33,145 nt of DNA from a virus (Duplodnaviria > Heunggongvirae > Uroviricota > Caudoviricetes): positions 1 to 33,145 of the IMG/VR virus record IMGVR_UViG_2534681702_000003, one strand, 5' to 3'. The notes under the pieces are model-generated. The model made no database searches. It was not told where the DNA came from and saw only the letters and a list, made by a program, of their open reading frames with translations. Position 1 is the stretch's first letter; every line of letters starts with the position of its first letter. A program made the translations under genes and the position numbers. Positions 26,563 through 33,145 of the stretch are shown here, in pieces.

Positions 26563-29532
26563 ATGGCAGTAAAGATTTCAGGTGTACTGAAAGACGGCAC
26601 AGGAAAACCAGTACAGAACTGCACAATCCAGCTGAAAGCAAAACGTAACAGCACCACGGTGGTGGTGAACACGCTGGCCTCAGAAAATCCGGATGAAGCC
26701 GGGCGTTACAGCATGGACGTTGAGTACGGTCAGTACAGCGTTATTCTGTTGGTGGACGGATTCCCGCCGTCACATGCCGGGACCATCACCGTGTATGAAG
26801 ATTCCCGACCCGGTACGCTGAATGATTTTCTCGGTGCCATGACGGAGGATGATGCCCGTCCGGAGGCACTGCGCCGTTTTGAACTGATGGTGGAAGAGGT
26901 GGCGCGTAACGCGTCCGCAGTGGCACAGAACACGGCAGCCGCGAAGAAGTCAGCCAGTGATGCCAGCACATCAGCCCGTGAGGCGGCAACCCATGCGACT
27001 GATGCTGCAGGCTCAGCACGCGCAGCCAGCACGTCAGCCGGACAGGCCGCGTCGTCGGCTCAGTCAGCGTCTTCCAGCGCAGGAACGGCATCGACAAAGG
27101 CCAGTGAAGCAGCGAAAAGTGCTGCTGCTGCAGAGTCATCAAAAAGCGCGGCAGCTACCAGCGCCAGTGCCGCGAAAACGTCAGAAACGAATGCCGCAGC
27201 ATCACAAAAATCGGCAGCCACTTCTGCATCCACAGCGACCACGAAGGCGTCAGAAGCTGCCACCTCGGCACGGGGGGCGGCGGCCTCAAAAGAGGCAGCG
27301 AAATCATCAGAAACGAATGCATCATCAAGTGCCAGTAGTGCAGCTTCCTCGGCAACGGCGGCAGGAAATTCCGCGAAGGCGGCAAAGACGTCTGAGACAA
27401 ACGCTAAGTCTTCTGAAACGGCAGCAGCACAGAGTGCCTCAGCTGCGGCAGGTTCAAAAACAGCGGCTGCATCGTCGGCCAGTGCCGCGTCAACAAGTGC
27501 CGGGCAGGCCTCAGCCAGTGCCACCGCCGCCGGAAAATCGGCAGAAAGCGCCGCATCATCCGCTTCAACAGCCACAACGAAGGCTGGCGAAGCCACTAAG
27601 CAAGCCACTGCAGCAGCGAGGTCTGCTTCTGCAGCAAAAACCTCTGAAACAAATGCAAAGACTTCAGCAGACAATGCTGCTTCCTCTAAGGCGGCAGCCG
27701 CATCGTCCGCTGGTTCAGCGGCGTCATCGGCATCATCTGCGTCTGCTTCAAAAGATGAGGCGACCAGACAAGCGTCAGCAGCGAAAGGTAGTGCCACGAC
27801 AGCAACAACGAAAGCATCAGAGGCGGCAGGCAGTGCGACGGCTGCATCTCAGAGCAAAGTTGCTGCTGAATCCGCGGCAACGCGTGCCGAAACAGCAGCA
27901 AAACGGGCAGAGGATATTGCTGATGCCGTATCTCTGGAAGATGCGAGCACGACGAAAAAAGGTGTGGTTCAGCTCAGCAGTGCGACCAACAGCACTTCCG
28001 AGTCACTGGCGGCAACACCAAAGGCAGTAAAGGCAGCATATGACCTTGCTAACGCAAAATATACCGCTCAGGATGCAACGACGGCACGAAAAGGGATAGT
28101 TCAGCTCAGTAGCGCCACTAACAGCCCGTCTGAAACGCTGGCTGCGACACCAAAAGCGGTTAAGGCGGTAATGGATGAAACGAACAAGAAAGCGCCTTTA
28201 AACAGTCCTGCGCTGACCGGAACGCCAACAACGCCAACTGCGCCAAAAGGGACTAATAATACTCAGATCGCAAGCACGGCTTATGTGATGGCCGCGATTG
28301 CCGCACTTGTAGACTCGTCGCCTGACGCACTGAATACGCTGAACGAGCTGGCGGCGGCGCTGGGAAACGACCCGAATTTTGCGACCACCATGACTAACGC
28401 GCTTGCGGGTAAGCAACCGAAAGATGCCACCCTGACGGCGCTGGCCGGGCTTGCTACTGCGGCAGACAGGTTTCCGTATTTTACGGGGAATGATGTCGCC
28501 AGCCTGGCAACCCTGACAAAAGTCGGGCGGGATATTCTTGCGAAATCGACCGTTGCCGCTGTTATCGAATACCTCGGTTTACAGGAAACGGTAAGTCAGG
28601 CTTCTGGCGCATTACAGAAAAACCAGAACGGCGCAGATATTCCAGGAAAAGATACCTTCACCAAAAATATTGGTGCCTGCCGCGCATATAGCTCATGGCT
28701 GAATATTGGTGGCGATAGTCAGGTCTGGACAACCGCGCAATTTATTTCGTGGCTGGAGAGTCAGGGGGCATTTAACCATCCTTACTGGATGTGCAAAGGC
28801 TCATGGGCTTATGCAAATAATAAGGTCATTACAGATACAGGTTGCGGAAATATTTGTCTTGCAGGTGCTGTGGTGGAAGTTATTGGCACTCGCGGCGCAA
28901 TGACCATACGCGTTACTACGCCGAGCACGTCCAGCGGTGGCGGAATTACTAACGCTCAATTCACTTATATTAATCATGGTGATGCTTACGCTCCTGGCTG
29001 GCGACGAGACTACAACACGAAAAACCAGCAGCCTGCATTTGCTTTAGGGCAAACAGGACGCAGGGTCGCAAATGATAAAGCTGTTGGCTGGAACTGGAAT
29101 AGCGGTGTTTATGATGCAGATATCAGTGGTGCATCGACATTAATCCTCCACTTCAATATGAATGCGGGGAGTTGCCCTGCTGTACAGTTCCGCGTGAATT
29201 ACAGGAACGGCGGTATTTTTTATCGTTCAGCGCGTGATGGTTATGGCTTTGAAGCTAACTGGTCAGAGTTTTACACCACAACACGCAAACCCTCTGCGGG
29301 GGATGTTGGTGCATATACGCAGGCAGAATGTAACTCAAGGTTTATTACAGGTATTCGCCTTGGCGGTCTGTCATCTGTTCAGACATGGAAAGGCCCCGGC
29401 TGGTCTGACAGGTCAGGTTATGTCGTTACGGGTTCAGTTAACGGAAACCGTGATGAATTAATTGATACAACTCAGGCAAGGCCAATTCAGTATTGCATTA
29501 ATGGGACGTGGTATAACGCGGGGAGTATTTAA
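26563..29532 (+). CDS. stf: Side tail fibre protein Stf (constant part plus current variable C-terminal part)
   Basis: N-terminus MAVKISGVLKDGTGKPVQNCTIQLKA... as recalled for lambda Stf; long Ala/Ser/Thr-rich repeat region; C-terminus ends ...RPIQYCINGTWYNAGSI. Confidence 0.9.
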   Translation: MAVKISGVLKDGTGKPVQNCTIQLKAKRNSTTVVVNTLASENPDEAGRYSMDVEYGQYSVILLVDGFPPSHAGTITVYEDSRPGTLNDFLGAMTEDDARPEALRRFELMVEEVARNASAVAQNTAAAKKSASDASTSAREAATHATDAAGSARAASTSAGQAASSAQSASSSAGTASTKASEAAKSAAAAESSKSAAATSASAAKTSETNAAASQKSAATSASTATTKASEAATSARGAAASKEAAKSSETNASSSASSAASSATAAGNSAKAAKTSETNAKSSETAAAQSASAAAGSKTAAASSASAASTSAGQASASATAAGKSAESAASSASTATTKAGEATKQATAAARSASAAKTSETNAKTSADNAASSKAAAASSAGSAASSASSASASKDEATRQASAAKGSATTATTKASEAAGSATAASQSKVAAESAATRAETAAKRAEDIADAVSLEDASTTKKGVVQLSSATNSTSESLAATPKAVKAAYDLANAKYTAQDATTARKGIVQLSSATNSPSETLAATPKAVKAVMDETNKKAPLNSPALTGTPTTPTAPKGTNNTQIASTAYVMAAIAALVDSSPDALNTLNELAAALGNDPNFATTMTNALAGKQPKDATLTALAGLATAADRFPYFTGNDVASLATLTKVGRDILAKSTVAAVIEYLGLQETVSQASGALQKNQNGADIPGKDTFTKNIGACRAYSSWLNIGGDSQVWTTAQFISWLESQGAFNHPYWMCKGSWAYANNKVITDTGCGNICLAGAVVEVIGTRGAMTIRVTTPSTSSGGGITNAQFTYINHGDAYAPGWRRDYNTKNQQPAFALGQTGRRVANDKAVGWNWNSGVYDADISGASTLILHFNMNAGSCPAVQFRVNYRNGGIFYRSARDGYGFEANWSEFYTTTRKPSAGDVGAYTQAECNSRFITGIRLGGLSSVQTWKGPGWSDRSGYVVTGSVNGNRDELIDTTQARPIQYCINGTWYNAGSI
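28562..28593. repeat. Left inverted repeat / recombination site of invertible segment (gix/cix-like)
   Basis: TTATCGAATACCTCGGTTTACAGGAAACGGTA; reverse complement of 31687-31718 differs at 2 positions; lies inside stf. Confidence 0.7.
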
Positions 29533-29534
29533 CG

Positions 29535-30068
29535 ATGATGCACTTAAAAAACATTACTGCTGGCAACCCTAAAACAAAAGAGCAATACCAGCTAACAAAG
29601 CAATTTAACATCAAATGGCTTTATTCAGATGATGGAAAAAACTGGTATGAGGAACAAAAGAATTTCCAGCCAGACACTTTGAAAATGGTCTATGACCATA
29701 ACGGCGTTATTATTTGTATTGAAAAGGATGTTTCAGCAATTAATCCAGAGGGTGCAAGCGTCGTTGAATTACCTGATATTACAGCAAATCGCCGGGCTGA
29801 TATTTCGGGGAAATGGATGTTCAAAGATGGCGTAGTGATAAAGCGAACTTATACCGAGGAAGAGCAGAGGCAACAAGCGGAAAATGAAAAGCAAAGCCTG
29901 TTGCAACTTGTCAGGGATAAAACCCAGCTATGGGACTCACAGCTACGGCTGGGCATCATTTCCGACGAGAATAAACAAAAATTAACCGAGTGGATGCTCT
30001 ATGCGCAGAAAGTCGAATCTACAGACACTTCCGGCCTGCCAGTAACGTTTCCCGAACAACCAGAATGA
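29535..30068 (+). CDS. tfa: Tail fibre assembly protein Tfa
   Basis: 177 aa; conserved Tfa N-terminus [22 protein letters not shown]... Confidence 0.85.
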   Translation: MMHLKNITAGNPKTKEQYQLTKQFNIKWLYSDDGKNWYEEQKNFQPDTLKMVYDHNGVIICIEKDVSAINPEGASVVELPDITANRRADISGKWMFKDGVVIKRTYTEEEQRQQAENEKQSLLQLVRDKTQLWDSQLRLGIISDENKQKLTEWMLYAQKVESTDTSGLPVTFPEQPE

Positions 30069-30096
30069 GAGAAGGCCCGCTATCGGGCCTTAATTT

Positions 30097-30624
30097 TTAC
30101 TCTGGTTTTTGTGGCCATTCAGGATTTGCCGTATCCACACGGCTGACCAGAACACTGTAGCGTTCCCATGCTTCCAGTCGTGTGCGTTCCTCGTCTGTTG
30201 CCATATTCAGCCTGACAGCGCGTTCCAGCGGTTGGATGACTGATTCAGCTTCGGAAAGCAATGCGGCCTTTTGTGATTCGGCCTGTTGTTGTTGCTCGTC
30301 TGCCGTATAAATCCGTTTAACCACAGCTCCGTCCCTAAACATCCACTTACCGGAATCATCAGCGCGGCGGTTGGCTGTAATATCTGGAACCTCAACGACG
30401 CTATAACCTTCAGGGTTAAGCGTGGAGGCATCTTTGGTGATGGCGACAATAATATTATTTGCATCGTAAACAATCTTTATTGTGTCTGGCTGAAAGTTTT
30501 TCACTTCCTCATACCAGTTTTTACCGTCTTCTGTATATAACCAGATAACATCAAAATTCTTTGTTAGCTGATATTGTTCTTTTGTTTTTGGATTTCCAGA
30601 CTTAATATTTTTTAAATGCTGCAT
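30097..30624 (-). CDS. Alternative tail fibre assembly protein (inverted orientation)
   Basis: 175 aa; [22 protein letters not shown]... paralogous to the plus-strand tfa. Confidence 0.8.
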
Positions 30625-30627
30625 AAA

Positions 30628-31686
30628 TTACACCTGTACGACGTTATACCATGTGCCATTGATGTATTTTTGTATTGGCCTGAAGATGGCTTCATCATCG
30701 CCATCTACTTCACCAATGATTCTTAATCCGGTAATTGCGTGTCCGGCTTTTTCATAACGACCACCACGCGCCATCAATTGAACAACACGCGTACCCAGGC
30801 GAACATCTTTCACATAGCGGGAATCAAAATTCCCCCAGTTGCTGGGCTGTATCTGACCGTTAACAGCAAATGTTACTGAGTTATCTGTATTTCGCTGACT
30901 ATAGAAATGCCAGCCTGAATCATCACCAAGCTCTGCAACAGTTGGTCTTGATGAAGTGCCCCATAAATTAAACCCTACGTTCTTCGTGGAGTTGTTGGAG
31001 CTGGATAGCGAGAATTTTTTACTATCACCTGCCTGAATGTTTTTAAAAGCAATAGCCACTCCATTCTGAAAGCGGAATACTCGCTGACTATTAGCGTAAA
31101 CATCAAGAATACCATCACCATTCTGTTTAAATCCGGTATCATTATCACCAAGAACAATTGAGTTCCCACCCAACGCGTTATTCGTGCCAAGTGCCAGCCC
31201 GCCATCAATCCTGGCACCATTACCAACAGACACAACTCCTGTTCTTAAGTTGATGTTGAATGGCCTTAATGGCCCAATATCTCCATTTTCACCCTCATTT
31301 TCTCGTGTAGGGATGATATGCAGGTGTTCTTCAGAACGGCGAAAAATAGCACCAAAGGATGAATTAAAAATCCTCAGTGCATTGACTGTCGATATTTTTA
31401 CTTCACTGCCGAAAAGGGCTTTAACAAGAACATACAAAGCACCCCATTTAAGATTCATCAGGTCTTTTGTTGTGGTGCCATGGCGGCTTCTCCATTTGAA
31501 ATATTCATTGCCGTTGTCGCCTGTTTCAAACCACATGTATGAATCAGTATCGCTGTCGGCATCATTTTTAAATCCAATCTTCGCCCAGTCAGTATTTCTA
31601 ATCCAGGCAAGGATTGAGTCGTTTGCAAAAGTAAGCCCACCGGACAAGGTATCGCCATTCTTTTGCACGGCGTTCCTGGCCCTGTT
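30628..31686 (-). CDS. Alternative Stf variable C-terminal segment (no own start; expressed only after inversion)
   Basis: Minus-strand frame opens inside right inverted repeat as ...LGLQETVNRARNAVQKNGDTLSGG..., sharing LGLQET with the stf junction; ends ...RPIQKYINGTWYNVVQV. Confidence 0.7.
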   Translation of the reverse strand, partial: NRARNAVQKNGDTLSGGLTFANDSILAWIRNTDWAKIGFKNDADSDTDSYMWFETGDNGNEYFKWRSRHGTTTKDLMNLKWGALYVLVKALFGSEVKISTVNALRIFNSSFGAIFRRSEEHLHIIPTRENEGENGDIGPLRPFNINLRTGVVSVGNGARIDGGLALGTNNALGGNSIVLGDNDTGFKQNGDGILDVYANSQRVFRFQNGVAIAFKNIQAGDSKKFSLSSSNNSTKNVGFNLWGTSSRPTVAELGDDSGWHFYSQRNTDNSVTFAVNGQIQPSNWGNFDSRYVKDVRLGTRVVQLMARGGRYEKAGHAITGLRIIGEVDGDDEAIFRPIQKYINGTWYNVVQV

Positions 31687-31718
31687 TACCGTTTCCTGTA
31701 AACCGAGGTTTTAGATAA
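31687..31718. repeat. Right inverted repeat / recombination site of invertible segment
   Basis: Reverse complement TTATCTAAAACCTCGGTTTACAGGAAACGGTA. Confidence 0.7.
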
Positions 31719-31772
31719 TGGCCGTTTCTGGCCTGCATGGCATGATTTGTGCTTTTGGACGGGAGATTCAGC

Positions 31773-32006
31773 GTGCTGATTGGCTATGTAAGGGTATCAA
31801 CAAATGACCAGAATACAGACCTGCAACGAAACGCTCTTGTTTGTGCAGGATGTGAACAAATATTTGAAGATAAATTAAGCGGAACAAGGACAGGCCGACC
31901 TGGATTAAAACGTGCTTTAAAGCGCCTTCAAAAAGGTGACGCACTAGTTGTCTGGAAACTGGACTGACTGGGTCACTGTATGCGGCATCTTGTCGTGCTG
32001 GTGGTG
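31773..32006 (+). pseudogene. pin: Decayed DNA invertase gene (Pin/Gin/Hin serine recombinase), premature stop and 3' truncation
   Basis: VLIGYVRVSTNDQNTDLQRNALVCAGCEQIFEDKLSGTRTGRPGLKRALKRLQKGDALVVWKLD then TGA at 31965-31967; pin-like codons continue to about 32006 then switch to tfa 3' sequence. Confidence 0.75.
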
Positions 32007-32099
32007 GAAGCCTGGAAAAAGTATCGGGTGTTGCTGAACCGTGTTGATACATCAACTGCACCTGATATTGAGTGGCCTACGAACCCTGTCAGGGAGTAA
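32007..32099 (+). pseudogene. tfa 3' end fragment fused to truncated pin
   Basis: Encodes [30 protein letters not shown]; about 73 bp near-identical to 33056-33128. Confidence 0.6.
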
Positions 32100-32113
32100 T
32101 CATTGGGATTATG

Positions 32114-32160
32114 CCGCAGCACGTCTTAAGCAAGAACGTGCTGCGGTTGGATGCTATTTT
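32114..32160. terminator. Hairpin, likely bidirectional terminator
   Basis: 10-bp stem CCGCAGCACG / CGTGCTGCGG with 13-nt loop, followed by TGGATGCTATTTTTT; lies between convergent genes. Confidence 0.5.
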
Positions 32161-32822
32161 TTCCCTGAAGCGGAAAACATTACTACAGTACCTTGAACCT
32201 TGGTTTTAACATTCTCGAAATGCTCTGAGAGTATATGTGTTAAGCCTTCTTCGGAATCTTTTGTGTTTGAAAAGATGCCTTTCTGATTGTAAATGCGCAT
32301 CAGTTTTTGACCGAAGCTATTGTGCACAACTCCATCGCCAAGAATTGTGGCTCCGTATAGAGTTCCATCGTCAGTTAAGGCCTGCGCAGCATTGCGTATT
32401 ACACAGCTTTTTGTAGATATATTTCCAGGCAGGCAGTGAAGAAGGTAAAACATGGAAATGGAATCAAATTGACCATGTAACGCCGCGGGATAAGGTTCAA
32501 AAACATCATGGCTAATTTTATGTTTAATTTTTGATTCCCCAGCCCTTGTAGATGCCGCGTTCAGGCTAGCTTCGTTCAAATCCATTAAAGATATCAGACT
32601 ACTCTCAGGTACGTGAGTAAGGTAAAACCCAGTTCCAACACCAATATCCAGATGGTTGTTACCTAAATGTTCCAGAAAGTGTGGAAGAAGGTGTTCCTTT
32701 GTAGGACATCCCCATGCAAGACGATTTGATACTCCCAAAACCCACCAGTCATAAAGCTTTAGGGTAAGTGGTGTGTAAATTTTAGCCCCATCATGTGTGT
32801 TTTTTTTCATTAATTTCACCAT
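32154..32822 (-). CDS. Class I SAM-dependent methyltransferase (222 aa), substrate unknown
   Basis: Motif I LDIGVGTGFY, acidic residue in LMDLNE, motif FDSISMFYLLHCLP; low-GC codon usage. Confidence 0.7.
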   Translation of the reverse strand: MVKLMKKNTHDGAKIYTPLTLKLYDWWVLGVSNRLAWGCPTKEHLLPHFLEHLGNNHLDIGVGTGFYLTHVPESSLISLMDLNEASLNAASTRAGESKIKHKISHDVFEPYPAALHGQFDSISMFYLLHCLPGNISTKSCVIRNAAQALTDDGTLYGATILGDGVVHNSFGQKLMRIYNQKGIFSNTKDSEEGLTHILSEHFENVKTKVQGTVVMFSASGKK

Positions 32823-32878
32823 GTTATAGTTTTGTTTATGAATTAAATCAATTATGGCGATGAATTACAAGGGGTTAA

Positions 32879-33145
32879 ATGCTGCCGCAGCATAGCGATA
32901 TTGAAATAGCCTGGTATGCTTCGATACAGCAGGAGCCGAATGGCTGGAAGACCGTCACCACACAGTTCTACATCCAGGAATTCAGTGAGCATATTGCGCC
33001 ACTTCAGGATGCTGTAGATCTGGAGATCGCAACGGAGGAAGAAAACTCGTTGCTGGAAGCCTGGAAGAAGTATCGGGTGTTGCTGAACCGTGTTGATACA
33101 TCAACCGCACCTGATATTGAGTGGCCGACTTCACCTGCAGAGTAA
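32879..33145 (+). pseudogene. Tail fibre assembly (tfa) 3' fragment
   Basis: 88-aa ORF ending ...[53 protein letters not shown], matching recalled lambda Tfa C-terminus; too short for a complete tfa. Confidence 0.6.

Follow-up and report, generated by a model that had tools for sequence, protein, structure and literature searches.

Cryptic prophages can keep DNA rearrangement sites after losing the enzyme that acts on them, and the locus analysed here raises the question of whether such a segment still inverts and by which enzyme. It lies in a window of 33,145 nt, the whole stretch of DNA that was analysed, inside the side tail fiber gene stf. We consider it probable, with good confidence, that a Mu-type G segment in stf, whose own invertase is dead, is inverted by a trans-acting enzyme, of which PinE is the likeliest.

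A G segment grafted onto stf

Judged by its sequence, the 3.1-kb stretch from 28562 to 31718 is a G segment of the phage Mu type that has become joined to stf in a decayed lambdoid prophage. The constant part of the gene and the two cassettes are arranged as follows.

26557-28575, + strand: constant part of stf, codons 1-673 (ORF 26557-29532; RefSeq CDS WP_074526254.1)
28576-29532, + strand: expressed variable fibre end, 318 aa, Mu S' (G(-)) type; 305/318 aa identical to the Mu S' variable part
29535-30068, + strand: tfa, chaperone of the expressed cassette, Mu U' type, 177 aa; Caudo_TAP 2.2e-36; 172/177 aa identical to Mu U'
30072-30091, no strand assigned: GC-rich hairpin between the convergent chaperone genes, terminator-like on the + strand by consensus scan only
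30097-30624, - strand: tfa', chaperone of the silent cassette, Mu U type, 175 aa; Caudo_TAP 1e-37; 163/175 aa identical to Mu U
30628-31704, - strand: silent, start-less variable fibre end, 358 aa; Gp34_trimer 6.3e-14; 47% identity overall to Mu S

The constant part consists of a prophage tail-fibre N-terminal domain, Ala-rich repeats and two Phage_fiber_2 repeats (Pfam: phage_tail_N 2e-72, Phage_fiber_2 1.5e-35), and is joined in fusion to whichever variable cassette faces it. The architecture is that of the Mu G region, with a constant N-terminus in frame and two opposed C-termini with their chaperones. The match to the G region of Mu and D108 spans exactly 28562-31718 and ends at the repeats; 62-68% of the query aligns, at about 94%, and this fraction leaves out the divergent silent tip, which does not align to Mu/D108. 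The proteins are 96% (S'), 97% (U') and 93% (U) identical to those of Mu. The first ~100 aa of the silent fibre end are nearly identical to Mu Sv and its distal tip is divergent; its best phage matches, at 85-91% over 80-85% of its length, are in P2-like and Mu-like phages.

Inversion in silico swaps the 318-aa fibre end for the 358-aa one and tfa (177 aa) for tfa' (175 aa). Stf is 991 aa now and 1031 aa after inversion, each cassette end being accompanied by its own chaperone gene. The original prediction had described this swap of the Stf C-terminus and Tfa correctly, apart from the length of the C-terminus, which is 318 aa rather than 310 aa. The opposed alternative cassettes that it proposed are seen as two convergent fibre-end and chaperone pairs in the open reading frames and Pfam matches, and both of its related but different tips are present in the translations. 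Its Pin/Gin-type label is right as to family and can be made more specific: the segment is of the Mu G type and the adjoining stub is gin, not an e14-type pin.

Two gix-like crossover sites

The segment is bounded by the two sites listed here.

28562-28594, + strand: left crossover site; gix-like 26-mer 28562-28587, TTATCGAATACC TC GGTTTACAGGAA; the arm runs to 28594
31686-31718, - strand: right crossover site; gix-like 26-mer 31693-31718, TTATCTAAAACC TC GGTTTACAGGAA

A repeat search of the window gives an inverted repeat of 33 nt with 2 mismatches (28562-28594 / 31686-31718, 94% complementary) and a perfect core of 24 nt, ACCTCGGTTTACAGGAAACGGTAA, at 28571-28594. The predicted repeats were therefore present and correctly placed, with a length of 33 nt in place of 32; the predicted 23-nt perfect core has to be replaced by one of 24 nt. 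Within the repeats lie two inverted 26-bp crossover sites that have imperfect dyad symmetry about the same central dinucleotide, TC, at 28574-28575 (+) and 31705-31706 (minus strand).

In the Mu genome record, each of the two annotated boundaries of the G segment contains the gix 26-mer TTATCCAAAACCTCGGTTTACAGGAA with 0 mismatches, and the consensus used for the search is therefore correct. The window has just two matches to this 26-mer, one at 28562-28587 (+, 2 mismatches) and one at 31693-31718 (-, 1 mismatch), and shuffled sequence gave 0 matches in 100/100 shuffles. Identity to phage Mu gix is 24/26 for the left site and 25/26 for the right one, which bears out the predicted likeness to gix or cix by the very search that had been proposed for it. 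Together with the ~94% match to the Mu/D108 G segment, this disposes of the possibility that the repeats are unlike known invertase sites.

The repeats also lie in frame in stf, as anticipated, both arms being open in the current and the flipped readings. The current reading across the left arm is ...VIEYLGLQETVSQASG..., and the flipped reading in silico is ...VIEYLGLQETVNRARN..., which belongs to a single open Stf of 1031 aa. A TAA in the right arm, outside the crossover point, leaves the silent cassette without its own start.

In the proposed mechanism, a serine invertase of the Gin/Pin/Cin/Hin family would bind the two 26-bp gix-like sites, cut at the central TC, rotate and religate. We infer that TC is the point of exchange. 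Inversion would replace the receptor-binding C-terminus of Stf together with its chaperone, alternating between the Mu S'/U'-type pair and the silent S-type/U-type pair.

The adjoining gin is a stub

Three features follow to the right of the segment.

31773-31967, + strand: gin stub, 64 codons then TGA (RefSeq WP_001421134.1); 186/192 nt identical to Mu gin
31791-31858, no strand assigned: Cin-enhancer-homologous stretch; matches cin nt 19-86, an "enhancer" feature in the P7 record
31968-32099, + strand: invertase-like residue (to ~32001) fused to a tfa 3' end (32002-32099); RefSeq partial tfa

Alignment to full-length invertases indicates that the stub ends by a CGA to TGA change at a codon that reads CGN (Arg) in intact genes. 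The catalytic-Ser motif YVRVSTNDQ is retained, while roughly two thirds of the protein is missing, and the HTH with it; the Pfam match covers only positions 2-73 of 145 of the Resolvase domain. The invertase beside the segment is thus as non-functional as had been predicted, and no serine invertase with a Resolvase and a C-terminal HTH domain adjoins the segment. Inversion would consequently depend on an invertase supplied in trans.

The fusion at 31968-32099 is, to judge from its make-up, the deletion junction by which the rest of the invertase was lost. Positions 32002-32080 also form a direct repeat (D3) with 33051-33129. Over its first 121 nt the stub has 100% identity to Mu gin, and this part includes the stretch that is annotated as the Cin enhancer in P7, an annotation itself marked "putative". 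We regard 31791-31858 as a putative Fis-bound enhancer that may still be usable in cis, so that the stub would contribute DNA, rather than protein, to inversion. The native Hin system has hixL ~100 bp away from its proximal Fis site (PMC3798978).

Both orientations occur in public genomes

A 5801-nt query from the window and its in-silico flipped version were compared with public genomes, with counts taken at a coverage of at least 80%. In the window orientation, the query has 100.0% matches in E8 and E1739 and one of 99.8% in E925. The flipped version aligns as a single piece to E1433 and E1620 at 100.0%, and ATCC 43896, LR882997 and 504838 match it at 99.9%. The tally is 13 flipped vs 14 unflipped genomes, for assemblies that report the majority orientation only. 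The segment is therefore found in both orientations among near-identical ETEC genomes, and the exchange point can be placed within the 24-nt identical core, no finer.

The same stub is carried by E8, E1739, E1433 and E1620; in the annotation of the flipped E1433, stf measures 3090 nt, the chaperones are swapped and the stub protein is identical. In E1316, which has the window orientation, and in E54, which is flipped, the match is cut short on the left at the same place, which corresponds to a common stf deletion boundary. With 545-nt right-junction queries, the stub arrangement was found with either cassette adjoining, in 167 and 59 genomes. Counts from 701-nt right-junction queries (137 vs 127 genomes) were discarded as not stub-specific, since a locus with a complete gin could just attain the 80% threshold.

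PinE is a candidate enzyme in trans

E8 carries pinE (WP_000905042.1, 184 aa, complete Resolvase and HTH_7 domains) in a thrW/proA island, ~0.9 Mb from the segment on the same chromosome. The gene sits beside avs2 in a defence island; the thrW/proA island has two pinE copies, at 345511-346065 and 347945-348463 of E8. The island's own invertible segment has opposite orientations in E8 and E925, and the exchange maps to 7 nt, TTGGTTT, which include the central TT, despite repeat arms of 671 nt. This is the signature of site-specific, not homologous, recombination. Inversion in trans is the likeliest explanation for the present segment because both of its orientations carry the stub and E8 has a PinE whose own segment has exchanged at its site.

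The natural sites of E8 PinE are of the e14 pix type, with a central TT/AA, and are 18/26 identical to the present gix-like site; the gix 26-mer was not found in the E8 PinE island at up to 3 mismatches. Because its own sites are of the pix type, activity of PinE on the present sites rests on the published cross-reactivity of the K-12 enzyme, which inverts the G segment of Mu (van de Putte 1984, as cited in PMC12529663). PinQ likewise inverts the e14 P segment in trans (PMC12529663). PinE is most likely the enzyme that flips the present segment and would supply the invertase in trans, although another invertase could be responsible.

Two other sources were considered and rejected. An e14 with pinE at icd is absent from E8, where icd is directly followed by iraM. 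In E925, the P2-like (P88-type) prophage that von Mentzer 2021 lists has a fibre that is not invertible and contains no invertase.

A switch in a decayed prophage

The prophage is located between potC and potB in ETEC strain E8. Its portal, tape measure, L and J genes are all partial, and the terminase, head and lysis genes are gone, so that it probably makes no virions. For that reason the switch most likely has no role for its own phage; it persists, most likely, as a still-mobile relic.

Some sister strains carry deletions within stf. E1648 and E1654 have a large stf deletion that leaves a Stf of 383 aa and ends 5 nt from the central TC (junction GACGGATT/ACAGG). An invertase product was considered for this deletion and rejected: the junction is off the crossover dinucleotide and the left partner contains no convincing pseudo-site. 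We treat it as a presumptive microhomology deletion. The lambda-att remnant of E925 contains a second stub copy and one solitary site only. A different allele of the same 64-codon stub occurs in prophages elsewhere, near prfC in CT30 and near bioA in E925, and the truncation of the stub therefore predates the present lineage.

It is conceivable, if improbable, that the switch benefits the host, with a phase-variable Stf masking receptors against phages or supplying fibres to co-resident phages. This reading is compatible with inversion of the segment in trans. In its favour, the prophage has kept an intact stf (991 aa), with its two chaperones and two cassettes likewise intact, while its portal, tape measure, L and J have been truncated; the stub arrangement occurs with either cassette in the 167 and 59 genomes; the candidate PinE lies beside avs2; and receptor masking by StfE2 has been reported for e14 (PMC12529663). 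However, the large deletions in E1648/E1654 and in E1316/E54 argue against a strong constraint on full-length stf, and the intactness may merely reflect recent decay. We would give similarly little weight to the broader proposal that host selection keeps the orphaned G segment in many E. coli lineages, with a surface or periplasmic Stf flipped by the PinE of the defence island.

Very unlikely is a frozen fossil, in which inversion ended with the loss of the invertase and both orientations had been fixed earlier and inherited. The cis invertase is clearly dead, the prophage is decayed, and one-site remnants unable to invert do exist, such as that of E925. Yet the two orientations are 100.0% identical over 5.8 kb, including the stub and the fusion junction, within one ETEC series, the truncation is older than the lineage, and E1316 and E54 have opposite orientations despite their common stf deletion boundary.

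Homologous recombination by RecA across the 33-nt repeats, without an invertase, is hardly credible. It would agree with an exchange placeable only within the 24-nt identical core, but a run of 24 identical bases is at the lower limit of what RecA can recombine in E. coli, so such events should be very rare, and yet the two orientations are about equally frequent in close relatives (13 vs 14). Moreover, the second switch in the lineage recombined within 7 nt at its crossover site rather than across its 671-nt arms, and the present sites are near-perfect gix. Inversion of the segment by an enzyme acting in trans remains our preferred reading.

Implications

The system is of a textbook kind, to which the present segment is a newly added member, and because the mechanism is textbook, the chief value of the finding is correct annotation. 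What the pipeline calls an "incomplete phage tail fiber protein" and a "recombinase family protein" both belong to a single switch, and either of the two proteins encoded by stf is a legitimate product. Sister-strain assemblies may accordingly differ in their prophage tail-fibre genes without any mutation. A switch of this kind can outlive its own invertase and stay mobile by means of an enzyme from another locus of the genome, and larger rearrangements could arise from solitary gix sites in other remnants. The PinQ/e14 defence idea gains a second, different segment as a test case. If the switch were indeed kept by the host, the single e14/PinQ case would widen to a class of "invertase-less" cryptic-prophage switches with a shared invertase.

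Comparison with known systems

The Salmonella Hin/H segment and Fin of Fels-2 share with the present system the recombinase family and the layout of two sites and a Fis enhancer, the latter putative here (PMC3798978), and PMC12529663 describes a second, prophage-encoded invertase that flips the H segment in trans. In contrast, Hin flips a flagellin promoter, not a coding-sequence cassette.

The P1/P7 C segment (Cin) and the B segment of Shigella boydii (PinB) have homologous S/U cassettes: roughly two thirds of the segment aligns at 90-96% DNA identity. The enhancer, putative in the present system, is located inside the 5' part of the invertase gene. In P1/P7, however, cin is on the other side, with its 3' end beside cixL, the segment is 4.2 kb and the cix sites differ.

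The e14 P segment with PinE is also an invertible stf/tfa segment in a defective lambdoid E. coli prophage (PMC12529663), which is flipped by an invertase from a different cryptic element, PinQ, and is found in both orientations in public genomes (Kirigo et al. 2025, PMC12529663). Its pix sites, TTGGTTTGGGAGAAGG, have a central TT/AA, its segment is 1.8 kb and its own PinE is kept, whereas the present locus has gix-type sites, a 3.1-kb segment and no cis enzyme, and is not known to have a defence phenotype.

A close relative is the G segment of Mu and D108 with Gin. The sites match gix at 24/26 and 25/26 positions with a central TC in both, the layout is the same (a constant fibre part, then [Sv-U / U'-S'v], then an invertase gene with its 5' end beside the segment), the S', U' and U proteins are 93-97% identical, and the stub DNA is 97% identical to gin codons 1-64. 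The present system differs in its constant part, a 673-aa lambdoid Stf instead of the 170-aa Sc of Mu, in its host element, a siphovirus-type cryptic prophage, and in its divergent S-type tip (47% to Mu S). Here gin is reduced to a stub, so the enzyme is needed in trans.

Organization of the segment

The segment at 28562-31718 lies in the following context:

24524-25831, + strand, truncated J (ORF, annotation)
25899-26498, + strand, lom (ORF, Pfam)
26557-29532, + strand, stf, with phage_tail_N and Phage_fiber_2 domains (ORF, Pfam)
29535-30068, + strand, tfa, Caudo_TAP (ORF, Pfam)
30072-30091, no strand given, hairpin
30097-30624, - strand, tfa', Caudo_TAP (ORF, Pfam)
30628-31704, - strand, silent fibre end with a Gp34_trimer domain (ORF, Pfam)
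31693-31718, - strand, right crossover site, a gix-like 26-mer (gix 26-mer match)
31773-31967, + strand, 64-codon invertase stub (Pfam, translation)
32002-32099, + strand, tfa 3' fragment (direct repeat, annotation)
32154-32822, - strand, class I SAM-dependent methyltransferase (ORF, Pfam)
32879-33145, + strand, second tfa 3' fragment (ORF, Pfam)

In a search of phage genomes, the Mu and D108 matches cover 28562-31718 from repeat to repeat, at ~94% identity over the aligned 62-68% of the query; the remainder does not align because the silent tip is divergent. The C segments of P1 and P7 are 90-96% identical across about two thirds. The expressed fibre end shares 305/318 aa with the Mu S' variable part, tfa 172/177 aa with U', and tfa' 163/175 aa with U. 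The silent fibre end (358 aa) is 47% identical to Mu S overall; its first ~100 aa are common to Mu Sv, and its closest phage relatives (85-91%) are found in P2-like and Mu-like phages. By the repeat-to-repeat match and the cassette identities, the segment is a Mu-type G segment joined to a lambdoid Stf. Its present state is G(-)-like.

Crossover sites and reading frame

A repeat finder run on the window places the inverted arms at 28562-28594 and 31686-31718. The inverted repeats of the original prediction are thus present, but they measure 33 nt (94% complementary) with a perfect core of 24 nt, instead of 32 and 23 bp. Two positions, each in the outer half, differ between the arms. The gix consensus given in that prediction was validated against phage Mu AF083977, in which both annotated G-segment boundaries coincide with a 0-mismatch copy of the 26-mer. 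In the window it matches only at the two arms, with 2 and 1 mismatches, and it has zero matches across 100 shuffles. The central dinucleotide is TC at both sites.

The left site lies within the 991-aa stf ORF, in frame as proposed. In-silico reverse complementation of 28576-31704 yields a single open 1031-aa Stf that reads ...VIEYLGLQETVNRARN.... The silent cassette is untranslatable where it stands, owing to a TAA in the right arm immediately outside the crossover point.

The invertase stub

The stub translates as MLIGYVRVSTNDQ...VVWKLD, followed by TGA, while intact relatives continue with RLGRSM. It covers only positions 2-73 of 145 of the Pfam Resolvase domain and has no HTH; the cis invertase is therefore dead. 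About 35 nt more invertase-like sequence follow, then a tfa 3' end. Another allele of the 64-codon stub with the identical tfa fusion (WP_001378636.1) occurs at two other places: near prfC in strain CT30, in a prophage whose J is intact, and near bioA in E925, in a second lambda remnant. This makes the truncation old and widespread.

The stub DNA is identical to Mu gin at 186/192 positions, including all of the first 121 nt, and the P7 record annotates a putative Cin enhancer at cin nt 19-86, corresponding to window 31791-31858. Enhancer-homologous DNA is thus kept in the stub, and it is predicted to function as an enhancer. The distance from hixL to the proximal Fis site is ~100 bp in the native Hin system (PMC3798978).

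Past the TGA, window 31965-32001 is identical at 28/37 positions to E8 pinE, 25/37 to P7 cin and only 18/37 to Mu gin. This switch of closest relatives means that the ancestral invertase was already mosaic before truncation.

The host prophage

ETEC strain E8 of E. coli (NZ_CM180514.1) matches the window at 100% identity and has the element between potC and potB. The element corresponds to E925_Pph_2, listed as 'cryptic lambda' by von Mentzer et al. 2021 (PMC8085198, Table S4), a paper that makes no mention of inversion. Integrase, early region and Q gene are present; terminase, head and lysis genes are absent from the annotation of the element in E8, and only parts of portal, tape measure, L and J remain. 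The region ~1-24500 still holds dicB, hokD, a YdaT-family toxin, a DNA methyltransferase, the Q antiterminator, and tRNA-Ile and tRNA-Arg genes, with virion genes as fragments. The methyltransferase gene at 32154-32822 sits between 95%-identical direct repeats of the tfa 3' end (32002-32080 and 33051-33129) and is missing from related stub-bearing prophages such as that of CT30. It resembles cargo that was inserted at the end of the prophage.

Both orientations in public genomes

A flipped query (27300-28575, the reverse complement of 28576-31704, and 31705-33100) and its native counterpart were searched against 5,426 complete E. coli genomes. Since both include the stub, the fusion junction and the methyltransferase, none of the matched loci has a cis invertase.

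Matches to the flipped and native queries
E1433, E1620: flipped, 100.0% over 5801 nt, in one piece
ATCC 43896, LR882997, 504838: flipped, 99.9% over 5801 nt
E8, E1739: window orientation, 100.0% over 5801 nt
E925: window orientation, 99.8% over 5801 nt

At a coverage of at least 80%, 13 genomes are flipped and 14 native. The RefSeq annotation of E1433 shows an stf of 3090 nt, chaperone proteins swapped in position and an identical stub protein. With stub-specific right-junction queries, an S'-type cassette adjoins the stub in 59 genomes and an S-type cassette in 167, a count that takes in one-site remnants incapable of inversion.

E1316 (native) and E54 (flipped) share a left match boundary at 28190, which suggests a common stf deletion, yet their orientations are opposite. 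Long imperfect tandem repeats rich in Ala and Ser (33-nt family D1) occur in the Stf constant part (26900-28200), which also has two 95-nt repeats, at 27940-28034 and 28072-28166. This tract appears prone to deletion, since E1316 and E54 have no match left of 28190.

E1648 and E1654 carry an in-frame stf deletion joining window 26750 to 28581 (locus L002, 3990-4010). The 383-aa product combines ~65 N-terminal aa with the expressed cassette. On its right side the deletion ends only 5 nt from the left-site central TC (junction GACGGATT|ACAGG); it could reflect microhomology or an aberrant invertase event.

The E925 lambda-att remnant near bioA (L009 4682-6396; NZ_LR883050.1 ~3228681-3230395), ~0.4 Mb from the window locus, holds a second stub copy, a truncated cassette and a solitary gix-type site (L009 5063-5088) identical to the window right site. 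Paired with a site at the window locus, it might in principle give rise to a large inversion or deletion in the chromosome.

Probable inversion in trans

The best-supported reading is Gin-type site-specific inversion in trans, in which an enzyme provided from elsewhere would act on the orphaned G segment. Neither e14 at icd in E8 nor an invertase in the P2-like prophage of E925 was found. In the E925 thrW/proA island, next to avs2, a small fibre/chaperone segment has a pinE gene on either side (172 and 184 aa). The Resolvase and HTH_7 domains are both complete in the 184-aa PinE, and the end of the HTH is missing from the 172-aa copy. The E8 island (342986-349385) is 100% identical except that its middle ~27% is inverted; the segment (positions 2357-5405 of L011, E8 NZ_CM180514.1 341486-350885) has a GIY-YIG gene on one side and avs2 on the other. 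Its arms, inverted pinE copies, are 671 nt long and 95% identical, yet polymorphisms map the E8/E925 exchange to the 7-nt TTGGTTT with the central TT of an e14-type pix site. This site-specific signature shows that an active Pin has operated in the E8/E925 lineage. For K-12 PinE, inversion of the Mu G segment is reported (van de Putte 1984, as cited in PMC12529663), and PinQ acts in trans to invert the e14 P segment (PMC12529663). An additional invertase elsewhere in the E8 genome or on its plasmids may contribute.

A host-beneficial role of the switch is conceivable, although large stf deletions are tolerated in sister strains. In the segment, the exchange point is placeable only within the 24-nt identical core. 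RecA exchange on these bases is nevertheless unlikely, given the balanced orientations among genomes and the mapping of the sister switch in the thrW/proA island to 7 nt. A frozen fossil that no longer inverts is unlikely, as identical sequence occurs in both orientations and the stub is older than the lineage. The sites, the frame, the Mu G identity and the two orientations at 100.0% bear out the proposed invertible Gin-type tail-fibre segment.

Comparison with known systems

The segment is homologous to the Mu G segment of the G/Gin system and works alike. While Mu has a functional adjacent invertase, the window segment has none in cis; the other testable features of such switches were all found. 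Invertases are already known to act in trans: PinE on Mu G, Fin on the Salmonella H segment and PinQ on e14. This kind of switch is already textbook, and the window segment is a further case.
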